Positions 12,320 to 43,960 of a stretch of DNA of 64,000 bases are shown in pieces; within the stretch, counting starts at the first letter, position 1, and each line of letters starts with the position of its first letter. The stretch covers positions 3,366 to 67,365 of the forward strand of contig JACZXZ010000007.1 in the NCBI GenBank assembly GCA_022571365.1, written 5' to 3'. The DNA is from Pseudomonadota bacterium (lineage in GTDB: Bacteria > Pseudomonadota > Alphaproteobacteria > G022571365). A program made the translations under genes and the position numbers. The notes beneath the pieces were generated by a model. The model made no database searches. It was not told where the DNA came from and worked only from the letters and a program-made list of their open reading frames with translations.

Positions 12320-12333
12320 TTGATTGAGATCAA
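12320..12333. promoter_or_regulatory. FNR/FixK-type box TTGATTGAGATCAA (perfect TTGAT-N4-ATCAA), inside extended palindrome GCATTGAT-TGAG-ATCAATGC
   Basis: Read directly, 73 nt upstream of the pntAA start codon. Confidence 0.5.
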
Positions 12334-17080: not shown

Positions 17081-17986
17081 CTATTCCGCCTCGGCCAGCT
17101 TCCCGACCGGCGCCCAGCCCGCAACGCCGTGGAAGAAGCCGTTGGAGAAGGCGGCGCCGTTCACCAGCTCGGCCAGGCGCTCCTCCGCTTGCGGCGGATC
17201 ACGACCGTCGAGCCCATCGCGGAACAGCCGCGCCACCTGGACCATGTCGGTGTTGTGGGGCGACAGGCGGAAACGCCTGATTCCCATCTCTTTGAGCGCT
17301 TTGAGCTCCCCCCACAGGTTGCCGTAGGTGGAGGACAGGATCTGGGGACCGTTGATGGCGAGGAAGGGCACCCCGTCCAGGGTCTCGACGTCCATGCCGT
17401 CCGGATCCTGGTCGCAGACGAACTGGCAGTTGTCCTTCAGCAGGCCGCACGACCGGGCGTGATAGCAGCGCGCCGAGATCGCCAGAGGCAGTCGGCCGAA
17501 CACCTGAACCTCCAGTTCCACGTCGCTCGAGGCGGCGAGAACCGCCAGGGACTCGGCCGGCAGCTCCACCGGCAGGCACACGCGCGTCGCCCCGCGCTCG
17601 ACGAGGTAGGCGAGCGTAGCCTCGTTGTAGACGTTGATGAAAGGGCCGATGGCATGGGGCCGGCCCGCCAGCAGGGCCGCGGCCGAGATGTCGTTGGCCT
17701 CCACGTACAGCCCCTCGGTGGCGGCGATGGCGCGGACGTGGGCCGTCTCGCGCTCGTCCATGATTAAGGCCAGGGTCGAAAACACCACCTCCTTCCCGGT
17801 CCTCTCCAGGCGCTCCACCACGGCCGCGAGATAGGGCTCGAAAAGCGGTCGGCGTTTGGAGCACACCACCTCGCCGAGGCAGACGCTGTCCACCGGCGCC
17901 TCGTCCGCGATGCCGAAGTAGAAGTCCCGCCATGCCTCGGGGGCCCAGTTGAAAAGGACCGGGCCCAGCGTCAGCTTCGCTTCCAC
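17081..17986 (-). CDS. ubiV: U32-family protein UbiV (O2-independent ubiquinone biosynthesis)
   Basis: 301 aa. Similarity blocks to E. coli YhbV/UbiV (LGPVLFNWAPE, CSKRR, LSTLAL, conserved Cys ARCYHARSC). Directly downstream of ubiU. Confidence 0.75.
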   Translation of the reverse strand: MEAKLTLGPVLFNWAPEAWRDFYFGIADEAPVDSVCLGEVVCSKRRPLFEPYLAAVVERLERTGKEVVFSTLALIMDERETAHVRAIAATEGLYVEANDISAAALLAGRPHAIGPFINVYNEATLAYLVERGATRVCLPVELPAESLAVLAASSDVELEVQVFGRLPLAISARCYHARSCGLLKDNCQFVCDQDPDGMDVETLDGVPFLAINGPQILSSTYGNLWGELKALKEMGIRRFRLSPHNTDMVQVARLFRDGLDGRDPPQAEERLAELVNGAAFSNGFFHGVAGWAPVGKLAEAE

Positions 17987-18024: not shown

Positions 18025-19014
18025 TCAGCGCCACGTCTTCTCGTAGGCCCCGGCGGTCTCGCGCTGACCTTCCATGACCGCGTGGAGCGCCGGGGCGGGC
18101 ACCGGATCGCCTCTCGCCGCCGCATCCACGGCCCGGCGCAAGGCGGCGACCACCTGAGCGACATAGGCGCGGCCGCGCTGGCGGCCCTCGATCTTCAGCG
18201 CCGTCACGCCGGCCGCTATCAGTTCCGGCAACACGGAAATGGCGCTCAAGGAGGTGGGTTCCTCAAACAGGTAGGCCGCGCGCCCCCGGGTCACGAAGCG
18301 CCCCTTGCACAGGGTCGGGTAGCTCGCCGCCTCGCCGTCGGCGAAGGCGTTGATCGTGAAGTCGCCCAGCCTGCAGACCAACCTGCCACCTTGCTCGATG
18401 TACCGTACATGGCTCGCGGGCGAGCACACCCCGTTCATATTAGGCGACTGGCCGGTGACGTACGACGACAGGGCACAGCGCCCCTCGGCCATGCAGCCCA
18501 CGCTGCCGAAGATGAACACCTCGGTCTCCACCGGAATCTGTTTATTGAGCGCCGCAATCTCGGCGACGGTGAAGATCCGCGGCAGCACAACCCGCTTGAT
18601 GTTGAACTCCCGATGGTAGAAGCAGATGGCCTCGGCGTTGGAGGCCGAAGCCTGCACCGACAGGTGGCGGCGCAGCTCCGGGTGTTTGCGGGCTACATAG
18701 TCGATGAGGCCGATGTCGGCCAGGATAACGGCATCGGCCCCCAAACGGGCGGCGTCATCCACGGCACGGTGCCAGGGGCCAAGGTCGCCGGCGCGGGGAA
18801 AAGTGTTGATGGCGACCAGGATCTTGACCCCGCGGTCGTGGGCGTAGGAGAGCCCTTCTTTGAGCTCGTCCCGGGTGAAATTGAGCCCCGGAAAGTTGCG
18901 GGCATTGGTCTCGTCGCGGAAACCCAAGTAGACCGAGTCGCCGCCGGCGTCCACGGCGGCCTTGAGCGCGGCCGGCGTTCCTGCCGGGCACACCAGCTCC
19001 AGGGCTCTGTTCAT
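18025..19014 (-). CDS. ubiU: U32-family protein UbiU (O2-independent ubiquinone biosynthesis)
   Basis: 329 aa, aligns along its length with E. coli YhbU/UbiU (ELVCPAG, NARNFPGLNF, SVQASASN, EGRCALSSY, YPTLCKGR, KIEGRQR). Confidence 0.8.
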   Translation of the reverse strand: MNRALELVCPAGTPAALKAAVDAGGDSVYLGFRDETNARNFPGLNFTRDELKEGLSYAHDRGVKILVAINTFPRAGDLGPWHRAVDDAARLGADAVILADIGLIDYVARKHPELRRHLSVQASASNAEAICFYHREFNIKRVVLPRIFTVAEIAALNKQIPVETEVFIFGSVGCMAEGRCALSSYVTGQSPNMNGVCSPASHVRYIEQGGRLVCRLGDFTINAFADGEAASYPTLCKGRFVTRGRAAYLFEEPTSLSAISVLPELIAAGVTALKIEGRQRGRAYVAQVVAALRRAVDAAARGDPVPAPALHAVMEGQRETAGAYEKTWR

Positions 19015-19679
19015 GGCCGCTTCGCCCGGGCCCGACGGCTTCGCCGGCGCGGGGGGCTCAAGCGCTCTTCCAGACCGTCCAGCTCGGCGGCCAGCGCGTC
19101 GCTGCGCATGATCGCCGGGGCGATCGTCGCCGCGCGCAGGGTTTCCAGGTCCTCGGCCGCGCGGGCGAACACCGCGCCGGCGCCCCGGACCAGAAAGCGG
19201 GCCGGCCTCGCCAACGGACCGAGGAAGGAGAGCAGGTCGGCCACGATGTCGATCTCCGCGCCGTCCACGGCGTTGCGGAGCGCCACCACGGCCTCGGTCT
19301 CGCCCTCGATCACCAGATCGCGGGAAAAGAACAGGGCGTCCCCGTCTATACGCCCTTCCAGGAGATCAATGAGGCTCAGGAGGGGAGCGCGGATCGTGGC
19401 CGTCGCCTCGACCGCTCCCGCGCCGCCGAGGGCGACGAGGCTGGGCGCCTCCGCGTCGGGGTGCAACAGGAAGACGAAGGGCAGGTCCACCGGATCGATG
19501 AGGAACAAGGTATCGCCCAGCTCCGCCAGCCGCTCGAACATGGCGGGGTGGCGGCGGTGTATGATCGTCATCGCGACGGTCAGCGCCGGCTGCAACAAGA
19601 CCGGCGGCATCGGCCGTAGCGCCAAGCCGACCAGCAACACCGGGGACAAAGGCGGCGTCTGGCGTCGTGGCTCGCTCAT
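19011..19679 (-). CDS. ubiT: SCP2-domain protein UbiT
   Basis: Start taken at MSEPRRQ... (ATG 19679-19677 on - strand). The 19011..19841 ORF extends further upstream. Contains the LFFSRDLVIEGETEAVVALRNAVD block matching E. coli YhbT/UbiT. Stop overlaps ubiU start (ATGA). Confidence 0.65.
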   Translation of the reverse strand: MSEPRRQTPPLSPVLLVGLALRPMPPVLLQPALTVAMTIIHRRHPAMFERLAELGDTLFLIDPVDLPFVFLLHPDAEAPSLVALGGAGAVEATATIRAPLLSLIDLLEGRIDGDALFFSRDLVIEGETEAVVALRNAVDGAEIDIVADLLSFLGPLARPARFLVRGAGAVFARAAEDLETLRAATIAPAIMRSDALAAELDGLEERLSPPRRRSRRARAKRP

Positions 19680-19762
19680 CGCGAAGTATGGGCGCGGTAT
19701 GGGCCTTTTGGCGGCGTCGTCCTGGCGTGCCAGACGCTCCGTCCGCCGTCTTTCAGGGGCAT

Positions 19763-19776
19763 TGGCCAAGATCAAA
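19763..19776. promoter_or_regulatory. FNR/FixK-like box TTGGCCAAGATCAA (TTGg-N6-TCAA core, one mismatch)
   Basis: 84 nt upstream of ubiT start. Shares the flanking context GGGGCATTG...AGATCAA with the pntAA box. Confidence 0.4.
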
Positions 19777-19888
19777 TAACCTCCGACCACCGGCCGGTGC
19801 CGCTGGGGCTGCGCCCCCGACGCGGGTGCCGTGGCCCGCATCTCGCGGCGCCGGGCGGGGAAGCGGCGAGGCGTGAAGCACGGCCAGC

Positions 19889-20545
19889 TCAGCCGACGGC
19901 TTGATCAGGGTAAGCTAGCTCATGCCGGGCTCTCCATTCGTCCTTGACGTAGTTGACGATTATCAATTTCCGCACGCCGTCGATGGGGCGCTTGTGGAAT
20001 CCGTGCCAAGTGTTCGTTCCCGGAATAAAGATGAGCCCGCAGTTGAACTCGTAGGGCACGGTGGCGACGAGGTTCAACTTTTCGTCCAGTATATCGGTGC
20101 CCCATTTTTCCGACCCCGGGTCCGTCGACAGGTATACCAGCATGGTAAACAGCTTCGCGCTTATGTCGGTATGGGGCTCCAGCCAGAAACCATCCGTGTC
20201 CTGGCAGTACTCGATGCGGAGAAAACTCCCCTTCAGCGCCACCCCGCAGGTGCTTTCTAATTTCCTGATCGTTGTTCCGTTTTGCAGCGCCTTCGCTACC
20301 TCGCGGCAGACATCGAAACGGCGGCGGTTCTCCACCGAGAAAAAAGTCCTCGTGTCGTTGTTTGTCTCCCGTTTTCCCTTGGTGTCCTTGATGCGAGGCG
20401 GATCAAGAGGAAGTGCCTTTACTGCATTGCAGACATCCTCCGGGAACACGTCTCCGAGAAACCAATGCCGGTACGGCTTGGTCCCGGCCCGGCCGTGATC
20501 TAAACAAGCAAAGAACTTGTCCATTATCGCGGCGGTATCGATCAC
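19889..20545 (-). CDS. putative Fe(II)/2-oxoglutarate-dependent oxygenase (218 aa)
   Basis: HxD...H candidate iron ligands (WLEPHTD ... WHGFH). GC ~55%. Domain family not firmly assigned. Confidence 0.5.
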   Translation of the reverse strand: MIDTAAIMDKFFACLDHGRAGTKPYRHWFLGDVFPEDVCNAVKALPLDPPRIKDTKGKRETNNDTRTFFSVENRRRFDVCREVAKALQNGTTIRKLESTCGVALKGSFLRIEYCQDTDGFWLEPHTDISAKLFTMLVYLSTDPGSEKWGTDILDEKLNLVATVPYEFNCGLIFIPGTNTWHGFHKRPIDGVRKLIIVNYVKDEWRARHELAYPDQAVG

Positions 20546-20710
20546 TGGTGTGCCCTCTCTTCAAAGTTCGATATTCGCGCATTTCGACCGCCCCTTCCTG
20601 CTCCGAAGCCTCACGGCTTTCGACGCCTTATCGGAACAGGCTGGCCTCGCTCGGTTCATCGGCGTCCTTTTTCGCGATCGCGTTTGGGCCCTGGCAGCGC
20701 GCGCGAAATC

Positions 20711-21469
20711 CTAGACGCGGTAGACGTACTCCTTGCCCGGTTCGCGTTCGATGTCTGGTGGAAAGCTCTTGCGCTTGTCGGCGTGGTACCGGGCCGAGTG
20801 GTCGCCCTCCGACAGACGGTTGTAAGTGACGAAATAGAGGCGCCGGATCTTGTCGCTCATGTTGGGCTCCGAAGCGTGCGGCGCGTAGGAATCGAAGAAC
20901 GCCACGTCGCCCGGCTTGGTCGGGCAGGAAACGAACTCCATTCCTTCCATGTCCTCCTCGGTCAGCGGCTCCCACTCGCGGAACAGCCCCCGCTTGTGGT
21001 GCCCGGCCACCATCTTGAGGCACCCGTTTTCGACGGTCGCCTCGTCGATGCAGACCAAGACGCTGATGTAGTAACTGCCGTAATTCCACCAGCCGGCCTG
21101 GGAATCCTGATGCGGCTTGAAGCCGTCACCCCCGGGCATCTTGAAATTGATCTTCTCCTTGAACAGCACGGTCTCCTCGCCCAGAAGCTGACCCACCGGG
21201 GCTTTCAGCACCGTGCTCAGCTCGGCGAAACCCGAATGGAACGGCGAGATATTTTCAATGCGGTTAATCAGCTCCTTGCTGGGATCGAGCAGGCTTTGCT
21301 CGTGATAGACCCAATGCCTGCCGGGTTCCTCCGGGAGCGCGGCCAGTTCCCGTGTCCAGGCTTCGATCTTCTGCATTTCCGCCGCGTCAAACACAGCCCG
21401 AACGACGACGTATCCATCCCTGTGAAAATTGCTGATCTGCTGATCCGTAAGCACCAGCGTTGTTAGCAT
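20711..21469 (-). CDS. phytanoyl-CoA dioxygenase (PhyH) family Fe(II)/2OG oxygenase
   Basis: 252 aa with PhyH-like motifs (KPHQDSQ HxD, distal YAPHAS). Confidence 0.75.
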   Translation of the reverse strand: MLTTLVLTDQQISNFHRDGYVVVRAVFDAAEMQKIEAWTRELAALPEEPGRHWVYHEQSLLDPSKELINRIENISPFHSGFAELSTVLKAPVGQLLGEETVLFKEKINFKMPGGDGFKPHQDSQAGWWNYGSYYISVLVCIDEATVENGCLKMVAGHHKRGLFREWEPLTEEDMEGMEFVSCPTKPGDVAFFDSYAPHASEPNMSDKIRRLYFVTYNRLSEGDHSARYHADKRKSFPPDIEREPGKEYVYRV

Positions 21470-21598
21470 CGGAGGCCTCCCTTCGTGGCACTCGACGGTT
21501 GGAAGAAACGGCTCTCGCGGGGGCGGTCGGCCATGATCGTGACCCCGCGCGAGTCAGACTGGCCCGAGCGATGCTAACAGGCATTTCCCGTATGTCGT

Positions 21599-21612
21599 TT
21601 GATCTAGATCAA
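21599..21612. promoter_or_regulatory. perfect FNR/FixK box TTGATCTAGATCAA (fully palindromic)
   Basis: Read directly. 130 nt upstream of the PhyH-family gene start (- strand) and 545 nt upstream of the cytochrome gene. Confidence 0.5.
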
Positions 21613-22156
21613 TTTCCCGCTACCACGCCGGGGGATCGGCAACCGCGTGACGTGCTTTGTGTTACGCACCACCTCCGCCCATCGCCCCGCAGACGTGGTG
21701 GCGACTGGCTTCGAACGTTTTCCGCAGGGTCCCGGTGGTCTATCCGGCTCGCGGCCGGCTATTGCCGGTGACCGGTCGCCGGCCCAATACCAGCACCGAC
21801 CGGGAAGGGACGCTTCAGGGATTTCCTCGCTTCCTCCCTTTATGGGGGTTCTTTGATGATTGGGGCTCTTTGATGCCAAGATTATCGGCGTGCAACACGG
21901 CTATGAAGTATAATATTCATTCAATTAATTATGCACTTAGTAAGAGTTATACACTTAGTAATAATGTATCTAGAATTTAGATGCTAATGATTATAATTAT
22001 CACTTCCAATCAAAGAATCACTCCGTAACTTTTTCGTGAAACCGACTCGTATCTGTTGCTGGCAACCTTGAGCCAACGTACTTTAGCTTTGTGTGGTTCT
22101 TTGGCATCTCTTTCCTCCGAGCCACGTCTATTTACTTATTTACTGCGGAGGTAAAC

Positions 22157-23371
22157 ATGAGGGGTCGCGCAGGCAAATGGGCGGCATTGACCGTAACCGG
22201 GCTGGCTGCCGTTGCCTTGGCCGTCCTCCTTGCCATCGGGTTTTCCCGGTTCTCCTCAGGGGGGGTGAGCGGGGCTTCCATGCCGAGCGACTACTGGCGT
22301 CTGCCGCTTGCGCCCCAGGGCGAGGCACCGGACCATTGGAGCGCGCCCGAGCGGTCTCTGGCGCCGGAGTCCTGCGCCGAGTGTCACGCAGACCAGTACG
22401 AGCAGTGGCGGACCTCGCTCCATGCCGGCGCCTTTTCACCAGGGTTGGTGGGACAGTTGCTCACCTACGACGCCGGCCAGATTTCAGGCTGTATGCAATG
22501 CCACGCGCCCCTCGCCGAACAACCGCGGGATTTTAAGGCCGCGCGCGAGAAGGGAGTCGCTCACCTCGCCACGGGTCAAGGGCTGGCCGCCGCAGGTGTG
22601 GCCTGCGGGGCCTGCCACTTGCGCGGCCACCGCCGCTTTGGCCCGCCCCAGCGAGACACCGGCGCGACCGGCCAGAGTGATACCGACGCCCCGCATGGGG
22701 GAGTGTACCGGGCGGCGTGGTTCGAGGAATCCGAATTCTGCGCCGCCTGTCACCAATTTCCGCAGGACTACGCGGTCAACGGCAAGCCACTGGAGAACAC
22801 TGTCGTCGAGTGGCAAGAGAGTCCTTTCGCCGCCGAGGGGGTCACCTGCCAGACCTGTCACATGCCTGATCGCAGGCATCTGTGGCGCGGCATCCACGAT
22901 CCCGATATGGTCGCCAAGGGGCTCACGGCCCGGTTTTCCGCCACCGCCGAAGGCGCCCGCTTCACCCTGACCAACAGCGGTGTTGGGCACGCCTTTCCCA
23001 CCTACGTCACGCCCCGGGTGGAGATGCGCGCGGTGGCGTTGGATGACGCGGGACGGCCGGTGCCGGCCACTGCCGCCCGCCACGTTATCCAGCGCATCGT
23101 CTCCTCCACGGCCCGAGGATGGATCGAGCTCGCCGACAGCCGCCTTCTGCCTGGTGAGGAGGCGAGCCTCTTCCTGCCTTGGCAAGGCTACGCCAAGGCG
23201 CGGCTGTGGTTGGAAGTCAAGCCCGACGACTACTATGACAATCAGGTCTACGATGTTTTGTTGGCCGGGTTGGCGCCGGATTCCCCCTCGGCTATCCTGA
23301 TTGCCCGCGCCGATCGCATCGCGCGGGCCAGCAGCTACCGTCTGTTCGTCACCGAGATCGAGAGACCCTAG
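22157..23371 (+). CDS. pentaheme c-type cytochrome with N-terminal signal anchor
   Basis: SD GGAGGT 5 nt before ATG 22157. Five CxxCH motifs (CAECH, CMQCH, CGACH, CAACH, CQTCH). Hydrophobic N-terminus. Confidence 0.8.
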   Translation: MRGRAGKWAALTVTGLAAVALAVLLAIGFSRFSSGGVSGASMPSDYWRLPLAPQGEAPDHWSAPERSLAPESCAECHADQYEQWRTSLHAGAFSPGLVGQLLTYDAGQISGCMQCHAPLAEQPRDFKAAREKGVAHLATGQGLAAAGVACGACHLRGHRRFGPPQRDTGATGQSDTDAPHGGVYRAAWFEESEFCAACHQFPQDYAVNGKPLENTVVEWQESPFAAEGVTCQTCHMPDRRHLWRGIHDPDMVAKGLTARFSATAEGARFTLTNSGVGHAFPTYVTPRVEMRAVALDDAGRPVPATAARHVIQRIVSSTARGWIELADSRLLPGEEASLFLPWQGYAKARLWLEVKPDDYYDNQVYDVLLAGLAPDSPSAILIARADRIARASSYRLFVTEIERP

Positions 23372-23553: not shown

Positions 23554-24612
23554 TTATGGCCTCAGATGTAGCAGTCCCCGTCGATCGGCCCGGACAAGGA
23601 TGACCAGCGCGTAGCCGCACTGAAACAGGAGAAATGGCGCGAAGGCGAGCGCCCGGCGGTCGGGTGGAAGGTGGATGAGCCACAGCGCGCCAAGCCCCTG
23701 GAGGATCGCGATCAGGTAGTGATAGAGGCTGACCTGCACGTGGCTCAATCCCAGTCGGTTGGCGAGCTGATAGAGGTGGGAGCGGTGGGCCGCCGCGATC
23801 TTTTCGCGATGGATCAGACGACGGAGAAAGGTGAGGGTGGTGTCATAGATAAAGTGAAAAAACAGCAATGGCATCACCAGGAAGGACGTATGAGCGCTCT
23901 CGTATTGTGACGCGATAACCGCGAGGACTGCGAAAACAAACCCCAGAAACTGGCTTCCAACATCGCTCATAAAGACTCTTGCCTGGGGAAAATTAAAAAT
24001 CAGGAAACCTAGAGTGCTGAACAATATTATGAAGCACAGTGCGGCGACGAATGCGTTTCCATCCAGGAATGTAACAATGCCAAAAAACAACGCGACGATG
24101 ACCGCCGTGCCACCCGCGAGCCCGTTCAGCCCGTCCATGAAATTGAAGGCGTTGGTCAGCCCGATGATCCAGAGCGCGGTCAAGGGGTAGCCGAACCACC
24201 CCAGGGCCAGAGTGCCGAAATACGGGAACGAGAGAGTCTCGAGGACAAGGCCTGAGGCAAGAATCACGGCCGTGGCCAGAATCTGAGAGGCCAGTTTGAC
24301 GGCAAAGCTGAATTTGCGGATGTCGTCGACCAGGGACACCGCGGCGATCGCCAGGGCCGCCAAGGCGAACCCAGCCATGTAGGGTTCCGGGATGCGGGCC
24401 GCGCCGCCAAACCCGTACAGGGCGGCGTAGCCCAAGAAGAAGCTCACAACAATCGCCACCCCGCCACCCTTGGCCACCGGCTGGTCGTGCGACGACCGGT
24501 GGGTTGGCAGATCCATGATCTTCCAGTGCGTCATGATCCAAGTCGCAAAGGCGGAGATCGCAAACAAAGCTAAGGAAAACGGTATGTATATAAATAGGTT
24601 ATAAGTATTCAT
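23554..24612 (-). CDS. glycosyltransferase family 4 polyprenyl-phosphate sugar-1-phosphate transferase (WecA/MraY-like)
   Basis: Start chosen at MNTYNLFIY (ATG 24612-24610). Multi-TM protein with conserved VDDIRKF and NAFNFMDGLNGLA motifs. Confidence 0.8.
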   Translation of the reverse strand: MNTYNLFIYIPFSLALFAISAFATWIMTHWKIMDLPTHRSSHDQPVAKGGGVAIVVSFFLGYAALYGFGGAARIPEPYMAGFALAALAIAAVSLVDDIRKFSFAVKLASQILATAVILASGLVLETLSFPYFGTLALGWFGYPLTALWIIGLTNAFNFMDGLNGLAGGTAVIVALFFGIVTFLDGNAFVAALCFIILFSTLGFLIFNFPQARVFMSDVGSQFLGFVFAVLAVIASQYESAHTSFLVMPLLFFHFIYDTTLTFLRRLIHREKIAAAHRSHLYQLANRLGLSHVQVSLYHYLIAILQGLGALWLIHLPPDRRALAFAPFLLFQCGYALVILVRADRRGLLHLRP

Positions 24613-24772
24613 ATTAAGTTCTCGTACGCGAACTTGGATGGTCTGGCCGCGCTCGATATTAGCCCTTTGATGGTGCCGATCCAACACCCGCTCGGCTTCG
24701 AGGCTGCGGGGCGCGGCCGCGTCGTCCCTCTCTCCGGCGGATCGGGCGCGGGGGCAGGGGCCGCCGTCACCC

Positions 24773-24853
24773 GCCGTCACCCGCCGCGCGCAAGTTCATG
24801 CCGTCACCCGCCGCGCGCGAGTTCATGCCGTCACCCGCCGCGCGCAAGCTCAT
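24773..24853. repeat. 27-bp tandem repeat x3 (gccgtcacccgccgcgcgcaagttcat) plus 10-bp partial copies upstream
   Basis: Copies at 24773-24799, 24800-24826 and 24827-24853, 1-2 mismatches each. Third copy contains the rlmB stop and last six codons. Confidence 0.85.
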
Positions 24854-26068: not shown

Positions 26069-27307
26069 AGCGATGGCGAAGAAAGCGAAATTTGAGCGGA
26101 CGAAGCCGCACTGCAATGTTGGGACGATAGGCCATGTAGATCATGGCAAGACGACGTTGACGTCGGCGATTACGAAGCTGTTGGCGGCGACGGGTGGGGC
26201 TGAGTTCATCCCGTTTGGGGAGATTGACAAGGCGCCGGAGGAGAAGGCTCGGGGGATCACGATTGCCACGGCGCATGTGGAATACGAGACCGAGCGGCGG
26301 CATTACGCCCATGTGGACTGTCCGGGTCACGCCGATTATGTGAAGAACATGATCACGGGGGCGGCGCAGATGGACGGGGCGGTTTTGGTGGTTTCGGCGG
26401 CGGACGGTCCGATGCCGCAGACCCGGGAGCACATTCTGTTGGCGCGCCAGGTGGGGGTTCCGGCGATTGTTGTTTATCTGAACAAGGTGGACACGGTTGA
26501 CGACCCGGAGCTGTTGGAATTGGTTGAGCTTGAGATCCGGGAGCTGCTCACCTCCTATGATTTTCCGGGGGACGATATACCGGTTGTGAAGGGCTCGGCG
26601 CTGGCGGCGTTGGAAGGTGGGGACAAGACTCTGGGCGAGGACTCGGTGGTGGCGTTGTTGGCGGCGATTGACGACTACATTCCCCAGCCGGACCGTGCGA
26701 AGGACCGGCCGTTTTTGATGCCGATTGAGGATGTGTTCTCGATCTCGGGCCGGGGCACGGTTGTGACCGGCCGGATCGAGCGCGGGGTTGTGAAGGTTGG
26801 CGACGAGGTTGAGATTATCGGCATCCGGGAGACCCAGAAGACGATCTGTACCGGGGTGGAGATGTTCCGCAAGCTTCTCGACCGGGGGGAGGCGGGGGAC
26901 AATGTTGGCTGTCTTCTCCGGGGCGTGGGCCGGGACGAGGTGGAGCGGGGCCAGGTGTTGGCGGCGCCGGGGTCGATCACGCCGCACACCAAGTTCACGT
27001 GCGAGGCCTATATTCTGACCAAGGAGGAGGGCGGGCGGCACACGCCGTTTTTCACCAACTACCGGCCCCAGTTCTACTTCCGCACCACGGACGTGACCGG
27101 GCGGGTTGCCCTGCCGGAGGGGACGGAGATGGTGATGCCGGGGGACAACGTGTCGATGGAGGTTGAGCTGATCGCCCCGATTGCGATGGACGAAGGGCTC
27201 CGCTTCGCGATCCGCGAGGGCGGGCGCACGGTCGGGGCCGGCGTCGTCGCCTCCATCATCGAGTAGAACCTCGAATAGCGGGAAAAGGTTAAAAGGTTAA
27301 AGGGCGA
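26069..27307 (+). repeat. 1239-bp near-identical duplicate of 42763..44001 (tuf plus 41 bp of 3' flank)
   Basis: Single mismatch (26090 vs 42784). Identity extends 4 bp upstream of ATG and 41 bp past the stop (aacctcgaatagcgggaaaaggttaaaaggttaaagggcga). Confidence 0.9.
26073..27266 (+). CDS. tuf: elongation factor Tu (copy 1)
   Basis: 397-aa EF-Tu ([18 protein letters not shown]). Confidence 0.97.
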
Positions 27308-42766: not shown

Positions 42767-43960
42767 ATGGCGAAGAAAGCGAAGTTTGAGCGGACGAAGC
42801 CGCACTGCAATGTTGGGACGATAGGCCATGTAGATCATGGCAAGACGACGTTGACGTCGGCGATTACGAAGCTGTTGGCGGCGACGGGTGGGGCTGAGTT
42901 CATCCCGTTTGGGGAGATTGACAAGGCGCCGGAGGAGAAGGCTCGGGGGATCACGATTGCCACGGCGCATGTGGAATACGAGACCGAGCGGCGGCATTAC
43001 GCCCATGTGGACTGTCCGGGTCACGCCGATTATGTGAAGAACATGATCACGGGGGCGGCGCAGATGGACGGGGCGGTTTTGGTGGTTTCGGCGGCGGACG
43101 GTCCGATGCCGCAGACCCGGGAGCACATTCTGTTGGCGCGCCAGGTGGGGGTTCCGGCGATTGTTGTTTATCTGAACAAGGTGGACACGGTTGACGACCC
43201 GGAGCTGTTGGAATTGGTTGAGCTTGAGATCCGGGAGCTGCTCACCTCCTATGATTTTCCGGGGGACGATATACCGGTTGTGAAGGGCTCGGCGCTGGCG
43301 GCGTTGGAAGGTGGGGACAAGACTCTGGGCGAGGACTCGGTGGTGGCGTTGTTGGCGGCGATTGACGACTACATTCCCCAGCCGGACCGTGCGAAGGACC
43401 GGCCGTTTTTGATGCCGATTGAGGATGTGTTCTCGATCTCGGGCCGGGGCACGGTTGTGACCGGCCGGATCGAGCGCGGGGTTGTGAAGGTTGGCGACGA
43501 GGTTGAGATTATCGGCATCCGGGAGACCCAGAAGACGATCTGTACCGGGGTGGAGATGTTCCGCAAGCTTCTCGACCGGGGGGAGGCGGGGGACAATGTT
43601 GGCTGTCTTCTCCGGGGCGTGGGCCGGGACGAGGTGGAGCGGGGCCAGGTGTTGGCGGCGCCGGGGTCGATCACGCCGCACACCAAGTTCACGTGCGAGG
43701 CCTATATTCTGACCAAGGAGGAGGGCGGGCGGCACACGCCGTTTTTCACCAACTACCGGCCCCAGTTCTACTTCCGCACCACGGACGTGACCGGGCGGGT
43801 TGCCCTGCCGGAGGGGACGGAGATGGTGATGCCGGGGGACAACGTGTCGATGGAGGTTGAGCTGATCGCCCCGATTGCGATGGACGAAGGGCTCCGCTTC
43901 GCGATCCGCGAGGGCGGGCGCACGGTCGGGGCCGGCGTCGTCGCCTCCATCATCGAGTAG
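42767..43960 (+). CDS. tuf: elongation factor Tu (copy 2)
   Basis: Protein identical to copy 1. Nucleotide differs at one synonymous site (42784 g vs 26090 a). Confidence 0.97.

Follow-up and report, generated by a model that had tools for sequence, protein, structure and literature searches.

Two putative Fe(II)/2-oxoglutarate oxygenase genes behind an FNR-type box beside ubiTUV are candidate members of a low-oxygen regulon

Why would genes for enzymes that need oxygen stand directly beside genes for hydroxylating ubiquinone without it? The question is raised by a 64,000-nucleotide stretch of contig JACZXZ010000007.1 from the metagenome-assembled genome (MAG) of an uncultured Pseudomonadota bacterium (assembly GCA_022571365.1); this whole stretch is referred to here as the window. 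In it, a gene for a PhyH-family Fe(II)/2-oxoglutarate (2OG) dioxygenase (phyH) and a gene for a second putative Fe(II)/2OG oxygenase (ORF218) precede ubiT, ubiU and ubiV, and a perfect FNR/FixK-type palindrome lies upstream of phyH (Table 1). FNR regulons are usually seen as a switch to oxygen-free chemistry. A sequence-only reading of the window had placed both genes co-oriented with and upstream of ubiT, and had called the pairing unusual. The placement was borne out and O2-requiring genes do stand beside ubiTUV, but the arrangement is not a one-off and recurs in several gene orders. We favor the reading, with a probability of roughly one half, that phyH and ORF218 encode low-oxygen-induced, O2-dependent tailoring hydroxylases that are co-regulated with ubiTUV but mechanistically independent of them. 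Membership of a low-oxygen regulon is its best-supported statement, since two unrelated 2OG-oxygenase families each lie behind FNR boxes in several lineages.

The search for the PhyH family gave 4143 matches, and nearly all of those listed are 252 amino acids long and 68-98% identical. A sample of 88 loci was analyzed with a simple neighbor-joining tree, onto which gene context was mapped, and with crude open reading frame (ORF) calling of our own. The tree splits PhyH into three groups, namely a large Rhodospirillales group, the alphaproteobacterial clade of the window, and a gammaproteobacterial clade. Of the 88 loci, 10 have an FNR box with at most one mismatch within 350 bp upstream of PhyH, where about 0.03 would be expected per locus. 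All of these ten but one, L035, belong to the window and gammaproteobacterial clades, and they include two pairs of near-identical contigs. Boxes equivalent to that of the window were found upstream of PhyH orthologues in L094, L092, L008, L009, L011 and L032. For the ORF218 family, for which 2734 homologues were found, an FNR box lies no more than 250 bp from the operon head in 14 of the 62 loci with enough upstream sequence, compared with 1.2 expected. Among the operon types are FNR box-hemN-Oxy3-ORF218, FNR box-Oxy3-ORF218-hemN and FNR box-ORF218, "Oxy3" being a paralogue of about 210 amino acids from family PF13640 that adjoins ORF218 in Azospirillum, Roseiarcus and many metagenomic loci. 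Behind FNR boxes, the recurrent neighbors of both families are hemN, ubiTUV, ubiM, Usp, hemerythrin and cytochrome genes. As both families are repeatedly placed in such low-oxygen neighborhoods, their pairing looks like a conserved pattern and is unlikely to be pure chance.

The contexts differ in detail within the window clade. L087 and L088 carry PhyH proteins 98% identical to that of the window and share its synteny. In L094 (81% identity to the window PhyH), a cytochrome gene and hemN are followed by PhyH-ubiT-ubiU-ubiV, with ORF218 absent; in L092 (80%), hemN and a PrpD-like gene are followed by an FNR box and PhyH; and in L091 (86%) the order is DAO-type flavoprotein-PhyH-ORF218-FrhB. 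L089 (81%) has hemN and Usp and then, on one strand (L089:6935-10759), a UbiM-type gene with a one-mismatch FNR-like box 78 bp upstream, followed by aldolase_II, DUF6969 and PhyH. Judged from this box, the O2-dependent UbiM-type flavin ubiquinone hydroxylase of L089 may also be FNR-controlled. The PhyH-ORF218 pair occurs again in L091 and L097, each in another context, and in L002 with PhyH reduced to remnants, and the multihaem cytochrome gene recurs beside window-clade PhyH in L087, L094 and L002.

In the gammaproteobacterial clade, hemN stands directly upstream of phyH in 13 loci, mostly 20-25 bp away, and in 11 of the 13 hemN is itself preceded by a perfect TTGAT-N4-ATCAA. The phyH genes of L009 and L011 each have their own perfect FNR box. 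Hemerythrin-like and ccm genes are found downstream in several loci of this clade, and L009 and L047 also contain ubiU-ubiV. L026 and L048 have the order PhyH-selD-ubiT-ubiU-ubiV, so that five gene orders bring PhyH close to ubiTUV or ubiUV (window/L087, L094, L026/L048, L009 and L047), and PhyH is close to ubiUV in 6 distinct loci among about 85. ORF218 is close to ubiUV solely in the window/L087 and in L112, where a hemerythrin gene, FNR box-Oxy3-ORF218 and Usp are followed by FNR box-DUF6455-ubiT-ubiU-ubiV. A UbiH/UbiM-family gene lies near PhyH in L037. A separate PhnY*-like paralogue of PhyH, 255 amino acids long and 38-39% identical, was observed at L009:5214-5981 and L037:12721-13446; a separate perfect FNR box precedes it by about 100 bp, and in L009 one ORF separates it from ubiU-ubiV.

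Table 1. Features of the oxygenase and ubiTUV region of the window
Feature	Position	Strand	Basis
PhyH-family Fe(II)/2OG dioxygenase, 252 aa	20711-21469	-	Pfam, fold
ORF218, 218-aa Fe(II)/2OG oxygenase	19889-20545	-	fold and motif only
ORF218-ubiT spacer, 209 bp, 72% GC	19680-19888	-	
ubiT	19011-19679 from likely ATG; longest ORF 19011-19841	-	NCBIfam equivalog
ubiU	18025-19014	-	NCBIfam equivalog
ubiV	17081-17986	-	NCBIfam equivalog
Multihaem c-type cytochrome, MtrC/ExtKL-like, divergent from PhyH	22157-23371	+	
Perfect FNR/FixK-type palindrome TTGATCTAGATCAA	21599-21612		perfect TTGAT-N4-ATCAA match
Extended -10-like element TGtTAGCAT	21571-21579	-	predicted from sequence
417-bp segment without counterpart in L088	21659-22075		

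The box of the window appears to be placed where an activator of phyH would be expected to bind. As the sequence-only reading had it, the palindrome is fully symmetric; it is conserved in L087 and L088, and the distance from its center (21605.5) down to the PhyH ATG is 136 bp. This ATG is preceded by the ribosome-binding site GGGAGG. The extended -10-like element predicts a transcription start at about 21564, from which the center of the box would be at about -41.5, the geometry of class II activation. The box could plausibly belong to an activating class II promoter directed towards phyH, and with boxes upstream of the orthologues of both families far above background, the earlier suggestion that it controls the pair gains weight. 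Sites with at most one mismatch number 4 in the window against 0.48 expected, and both of the perfect ones (21599 and 12320) lie upstream of genes. The second, TTGATTGAGATCAA at 12320-12333, is about 80 bp upstream of pntA (12406), which suggests that the transhydrogenase genes pntAB also belong to the FNR regulon. The repeats of ATTTCCCG that had been pointed out around the box are present on either side of it, but the window holds 3 such octamers against 2.7 by chance; they were rejected as a signal and are treated here as flanks of the box only.

On the cytochrome side, the interval appears to have been altered. The 417-bp segment is present in L087 and absent from L088, a contig 98-99% identical, and the 9-bp repeat ACGTGCTTT/ACGTACTTT stands on either side of it, as in an insertion with target-site duplication; terminal inverted repeats were sought in the segment and none was found. 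It consists of a GC-rich and an AT-rich half, with tandem repeats of 17/18 nucleotides and a promoter-like site, TATACA-17-TAGAAT. The sole sigma-70-like match of the promoter scan lies within the segment, on the plus strand at 21948-21976. The segment shifts the cytochrome gene from about 126 bp (L088) to about 545 bp from the FNR box. Scanned against Rfam, 19600-22200 yielded no credible RNA element.

The three ubi genes are, by their profile scores, genuine genes of O2-independent ubiquinone hydroxylation: UbiT, UbiU and UbiV reach 62.3, 509.9 and 365.4 bits against NCBIfam cut-offs of 46.9, 440 and 275. The ATG at 19679 is the most likely start of ubiT, because it fits both the L094 UbiT, 223 amino acids long, and the place of the SCP2 domain. 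With this start the 210-bp gap between ORF218 and ubiT in the sequence-only reading is right, while the longest ORF reaches 19841. Two features lie in the spacer, namely a T-tract hairpin (19797-19783) and an FNR-like site with two mismatches, TTGATCTTGGCCAA (19775-19762), from which it is about 90 bp to the ubiT ATG; in L094, TTGACTGTGGTCAA sits 97 bp before ubiT. On these features of the spacer and on the L094 site, phyH-ORF218 and ubiTUV are most likely two neighboring FNR-type units, with read-through possible. The terminator scan found no terminator-like site in the interval between PhyH and ORF218. For the region it gave 5 terminator-like matches against 4.4 in shuffled sequences, so it cannot decide co-transcription, and whether phyH-ORF218 is co-transcribed with ubiTUV is uncertain. 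A further FNR-like site, TTGACGATTATCAA, with one mismatch, was seen at 19953-19966, inside the 3' end of ORF218 and about 280 bp upstream of ubiT; it falls on LIIVN codons and is probably a coding coincidence.

The assignment of the PhyH protein to its family, made from the sequence alone, was confirmed by Pfam (PF05721, 113 bits against a cut-off of 22, E=3e-32) and by its AlphaFold2 (AF2) model, which has a mean predicted local distance difference test (pLDDT) value of 90.1. The motif H120-x-D122, H198 and R209/R210 is invariant across the 88 sequences. By Pfam, fold and motif, PhyH is a complete Fe(II)/2OG oxygenase of predicted activity. The top Foldseek matches of the model are proline hydroxylase H11, the leucine hydroxylase GriE, SnoN, EvdMO1 and PHYHD1, with EctD lower, and most of these relatives are small-molecule enzymes. 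Among NCBIfam models, that of the methylphosphonate hydroxylase PhnY* matches best (NF052437, E=1e-50, nearly full length), but its 172.7 bits fall below the cut-off of 500, which makes PhyH a relative rather than a member of that family. The nearest enzymes are thus phosphonate alpha-hydroxylases by sequence and hydroxylases of free amino acids and ectoine by fold, and by analogy with PhnY/PhnY* the substrate is most likely a small, polar, aminophosphonate-like compound. Public names vary: NCBI lists the pair as "phytanoyl-CoA dioxygenase family protein" and "2OG-Fe(II) oxygenase", and the Joint Genome Institute (JGI) labels some close PhyH homologues '2-aminoethylphosphonate dioxygenase'.

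The large sister group of PhyH, about 62% identical, comprises 62 loci, mostly Rhodospirillales, in which PhyH lies between a cytidine diphosphate (CDP)-alcohol phosphatidyltransferase and a nucleotidyltransferase. In some of them PhyH also adjoins a phosphoenolpyruvate (PEP) mutase/nucleotidyltransferase fusion and phosphonopyruvate decarboxylase, and all of them are set among hopanoid genes. No alignment position strictly separates FNR-context from phosphonate-context PhyH, so the data prove neither the same nor a different substrate in the two groups; positions 128, 129, 133 and 165, in two loops modeled with lower confidence, discriminate between the groups moderately. One MAG, NP992, has two copies, L012 in the phosphonate/hopanoid context and L048 upstream of selD-ubiTUV. 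As an observation in its own right, many Rhodospirillales MAGs (L007-L086, for example L014:4000-16000) carry a phosphonate/CDP-alcohol head-group cluster inside the hopanoid cluster hpnN, hpnA, ispH, hpnH. It contains the PEP mutase-nucleotidyltransferase fusion, the decarboxylase Ppd, two CDP-OH transferases, a nucleotidyltransferase and PhyH, and hints at a phosphono- or phospho-lipid linked to hopanoids, so far undescribed. Within the window, searches for pepM, ppd, hemN, selD and hopanoid genes found none; a lone marginal match to an HpnA-type epimerase query (E=0.006) was disregarded.

ORF218 gave no match in Pfam, NCBIfam or a sequence search of the PDB. Its AF2 model (pLDDT 91.8) is matched by Foldseek to PasI/PolD on top, and to Tpa1/OGFOD1, PHD2 and the Pseudomonas prolyl hydroxylase, with probability 1.0, template modeling (TM) scores of 0.53-0.68 and E values of 1e-10 to 1e-6; identity to the solved structures is 12-19%. 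Residues H125, D127, H181 and R192 are invariant. The earlier call of a second Fe(II)/2OG oxygenase thus holds, on predicted structure and invariant motif rather than on sequence profiles, and the predicted fold is prolyl-hydroxylase-like. ORF218 is 28-31% identical to PF13640 proteins, including its Oxy3 partners, of which it is a divergent paralogue, and 2 of the 120 homologues listed have a precomputed PF13640 match.

Under the favored reading, phyH-ORF218 would be a small FNR-activated transcription unit beside ubiTUV, probably acquired horizontally. As oxygen falls, FNR would bind the palindrome about 41.5 bp upstream of the predicted start and activate the extended -10 promoter; phyH and ORF218 would then be produced together, possibly with read-through into ubiTUV, which appears to carry a weaker FNR-like site of its own. 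The two products should still need O2, given that motif and fold make them ordinary Fe(II)/2OG oxygenases, and extra or specialized copies might sustain O2-limited hydroxylation at trace oxygen, a "hypoxic isozyme" or compensation logic. Animal PHD2/3 are induced by hypoxia, and hemF of Pseudomonas is induced by Anr. The pair would share a regulon with UbiTUV and HemN and have no part in quinone hydroxylation, and ORF218 would be a prolyl-hydroxylase-like enzyme normally working beside its PF13640 paralogue on a protein or a small molecule.

Several observations weigh against this reading. Many of the loci come from closely related MAGs, so that the counts overstate the number of independent events. 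An FNR box was found in only one of the 62 loci of the Rhodospirillales group (L035); with the loci of phosphonate, CDP-alcohol and hopanoid context essentially devoid of it, FNR control of PhyH would be clade-specific. The aminophosphonate-type assignment draws on a sub-threshold hidden Markov model (HMM) match and on relatives, while pepM, ppd and the partner PhnZ are absent from the window and from the annotated FNR-context loci, and no HD domain (PhnZ) is found among the annotated neighbors of L087, L089, L091, L092 and L094. No fnr gene was seen within the window. The need for these hydroxylations specifically at low O2 is also left unexplained by the reading.

An alternative that we consider unlikely, though not far-fetched, is that the two genes are chance cargo, a horizontally acquired module that came to lie by ubiTUV with no shared regulation or function, the FNR box serving the cytochrome gene. 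Base composition is in keeping with it. The GC content of ORF218 is 55.7% and that of PhyH 59.6%, compared with 67-71% for ubiTUV and 65.2% for the whole window, so the figure of about 55% earlier given for both genes fits ORF218 but not PhyH. A WecA/MraY-like glycosyltransferase family 4 gene at 23554-24780 likewise has low GC (58.7%), which makes the lower-GC stretch patchy over 19.9-24.8 kb. Cargo would also account for the unrelated contexts of the module in L091 and L097, for the lack of ORF218 in L094, and for the box in L088, which at some 126 bp from the cytochrome ATG could serve that gene. Against this, both families repeatedly have FNR boxes upstream where the cytochrome is missing from the locus, the -10 element and its spacing suit transcription towards phyH, and the inserted segment moves the box of the window far from the cytochrome start. 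Of the earlier suggestion of unrelated cargo, the lower-GC pair that also occurs in other contexts stands, but not the lack of relation, for the genes appear to belong to the same low-oxygen regulon. It is very improbable, in turn, that the site represses, turning the O2-requiring genes off in anoxia while ubiTUV is on from its own promoter. Shutting down useless O2-dependent enzymes would be a sensible design, and ubiTUV may have an FNR-like site of its own; yet the box does not cover the predicted -10 and start region but stands upstream of it, at an activating distance, and gammaproteobacterial phyH shares an operon with hemN. Control of hemN by FNR, Anr or FixK is activating in the bacteria studied.

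The other alternatives concern what the enzymes do. It is distinctly doubtful that they act in ubiquinone (or haem) biosynthesis itself, as high-affinity O2-dependent hydroxylases or oxidative decarboxylases at trace oxygen alongside UbiUV and HemN at zero oxygen. The recurrence of the ubiTUV adjacency in several gene orders would suit such a role, as would the UbiM-type flavin hydroxylases of L089 and L037, the hemN-phyH operons together with L112, and the 38%-identical PhyH paralogue behind a perfect FNR box shortly upstream of ubiU-ubiV in L009. The relatives by fold, however, use free amino acids, ectoine, phosphonates or proteins and not membrane polyprenyl phenols; most loci of either family have no ubi gene within 7-10 kb, hemN being a commoner neighbor than any ubi gene; no further ubi genes are linked; and the sister PhyH group lies among phosphonate and head-group genes. 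With most PhyH orthologues in that company and with phosphonate, amino-acid and prolyl hydroxylases as relatives, the isoprenoid or quinone-related substrate first proposed finds no support. Equally doubtful is the idea that ORF218, perhaps together with PhyH, serves as a regulatory oxygen gauge, a PHD-like hydroxylase of a protein target (EF-Tu, a ribosomal protein, UbiT/U/V or HemN, for example) that would fine-tune when the O2-dependent and when the O2-independent pathways are used. Feedback through hypoxia-induced PHDs is a known design, the fold of ORF218 resembles Tpa1/OGFOD1, PHD2 and the Pseudomonas prolyl hydroxylase, and its family is consistently found in FNR, hemN, Usp and hemerythrin neighborhoods, but its best fold matches, PasI and PolD, are small-molecule enzymes and no conserved candidate substrate gene adjoins it. 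The proximity of tuf in the window has no parallel in other loci, for which reason EF-Tu was dropped as a substrate of ORF218. The window contains two tuf copies (26073-27266 and 42767-43960), with the oxygenase/ubiTUV region immediately upstream of the clusters of tuf-rplKAJL-rpoBC and of ribosomal protein genes. We give little credence to a bolder version, a bacterial counterpart of the hypoxia-induced PHD loop, in which the pair would sense the O2 that is left and, by hydroxylating UbiT, UbiU, UbiV, HemN or a pathway intermediate, govern how haem and ubiquinone synthesis changes over between its O2-dependent and O2-independent routes.

If the favored reading of low-oxygen-induced tailoring hydroxylases is right, two uncharacterized O2-consuming families are conserved members of a low-oxygen program in many alpha- and gammaproteobacterial genomes and metagenomes, beside HemN and UbiUV, the classic substitutes that work without O2. 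Confirmation would point to a dedicated micro-oxic layer of metabolism, or to oxygen gauging, lacking in model organisms, and would give two abundant families of 'hypothetical' oxygenases a testable physiological setting. The results also caution that phosphonate dioxygenase is not a safe label for every member of the PhyH family. Full-text literature searches for links of PhyH or 2OG oxygenases to FNR, Anr, FixK, hemN or ubiUV gave nothing relevant, and the founding UbiTUV paper mentions neither dioxygenases nor gene-neighborhood findings. The enzyme superfamilies and the regulator are thus known, while their conserved association is undescribed.

Among known systems, the window PhyH is closest to the phosphonate alpha-hydroxylases PhnY, PhnY* and FzmG, with which it shares the PhyH fold and the complete HxD...H...R motif, and part of its sister group adjoins PEP mutase and phosphonopyruvate decarboxylase, as would suit PhnY/PhnY*. 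PhnY-type dioxygenases hydroxylate the alpha-carbon of phosphonates, and the phosphonate inventory that covers PhnY*/FzmG-type dioxygenases contains no FNR-linked clade (PMC8942020). The window PhyH differs from PhnY/PhnY* in its profile score and in the lack of PhnZ or phosphonate genes around it and its annotated FNR-context relatives, and its clade stands under FNR boxes with hemN or ubiTUV as neighbors, a setting undescribed for phosphonate enzymes. ORF218 has the double-stranded beta-helix and the iron and 2OG motif of the PF13640 enzymes (PHD2, Tpa1/OGFOD1 and Pseudomonas PPHD) and of PasI/PolD, but unlike other ORF218 loci, where a PF13640 paralogue is the usual partner, that of the window has no such companion. 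The ubiUV genes and a ubiT promoter of E. coli are activated by FNR through sites that precede the starts by about 33-36 nucleotides (PMC10470549). The ubiTUV orthologues of the window likewise lie beside FNR-type sites, as do the FNR/Anr-controlled ubiUV(T) genes of E. coli and P. aeruginosa. In contrast to those model organisms, in which no oxygenase genes are attached, here two oxygenase genes follow the perfect site, and ubiT is preceded by a degenerate one.

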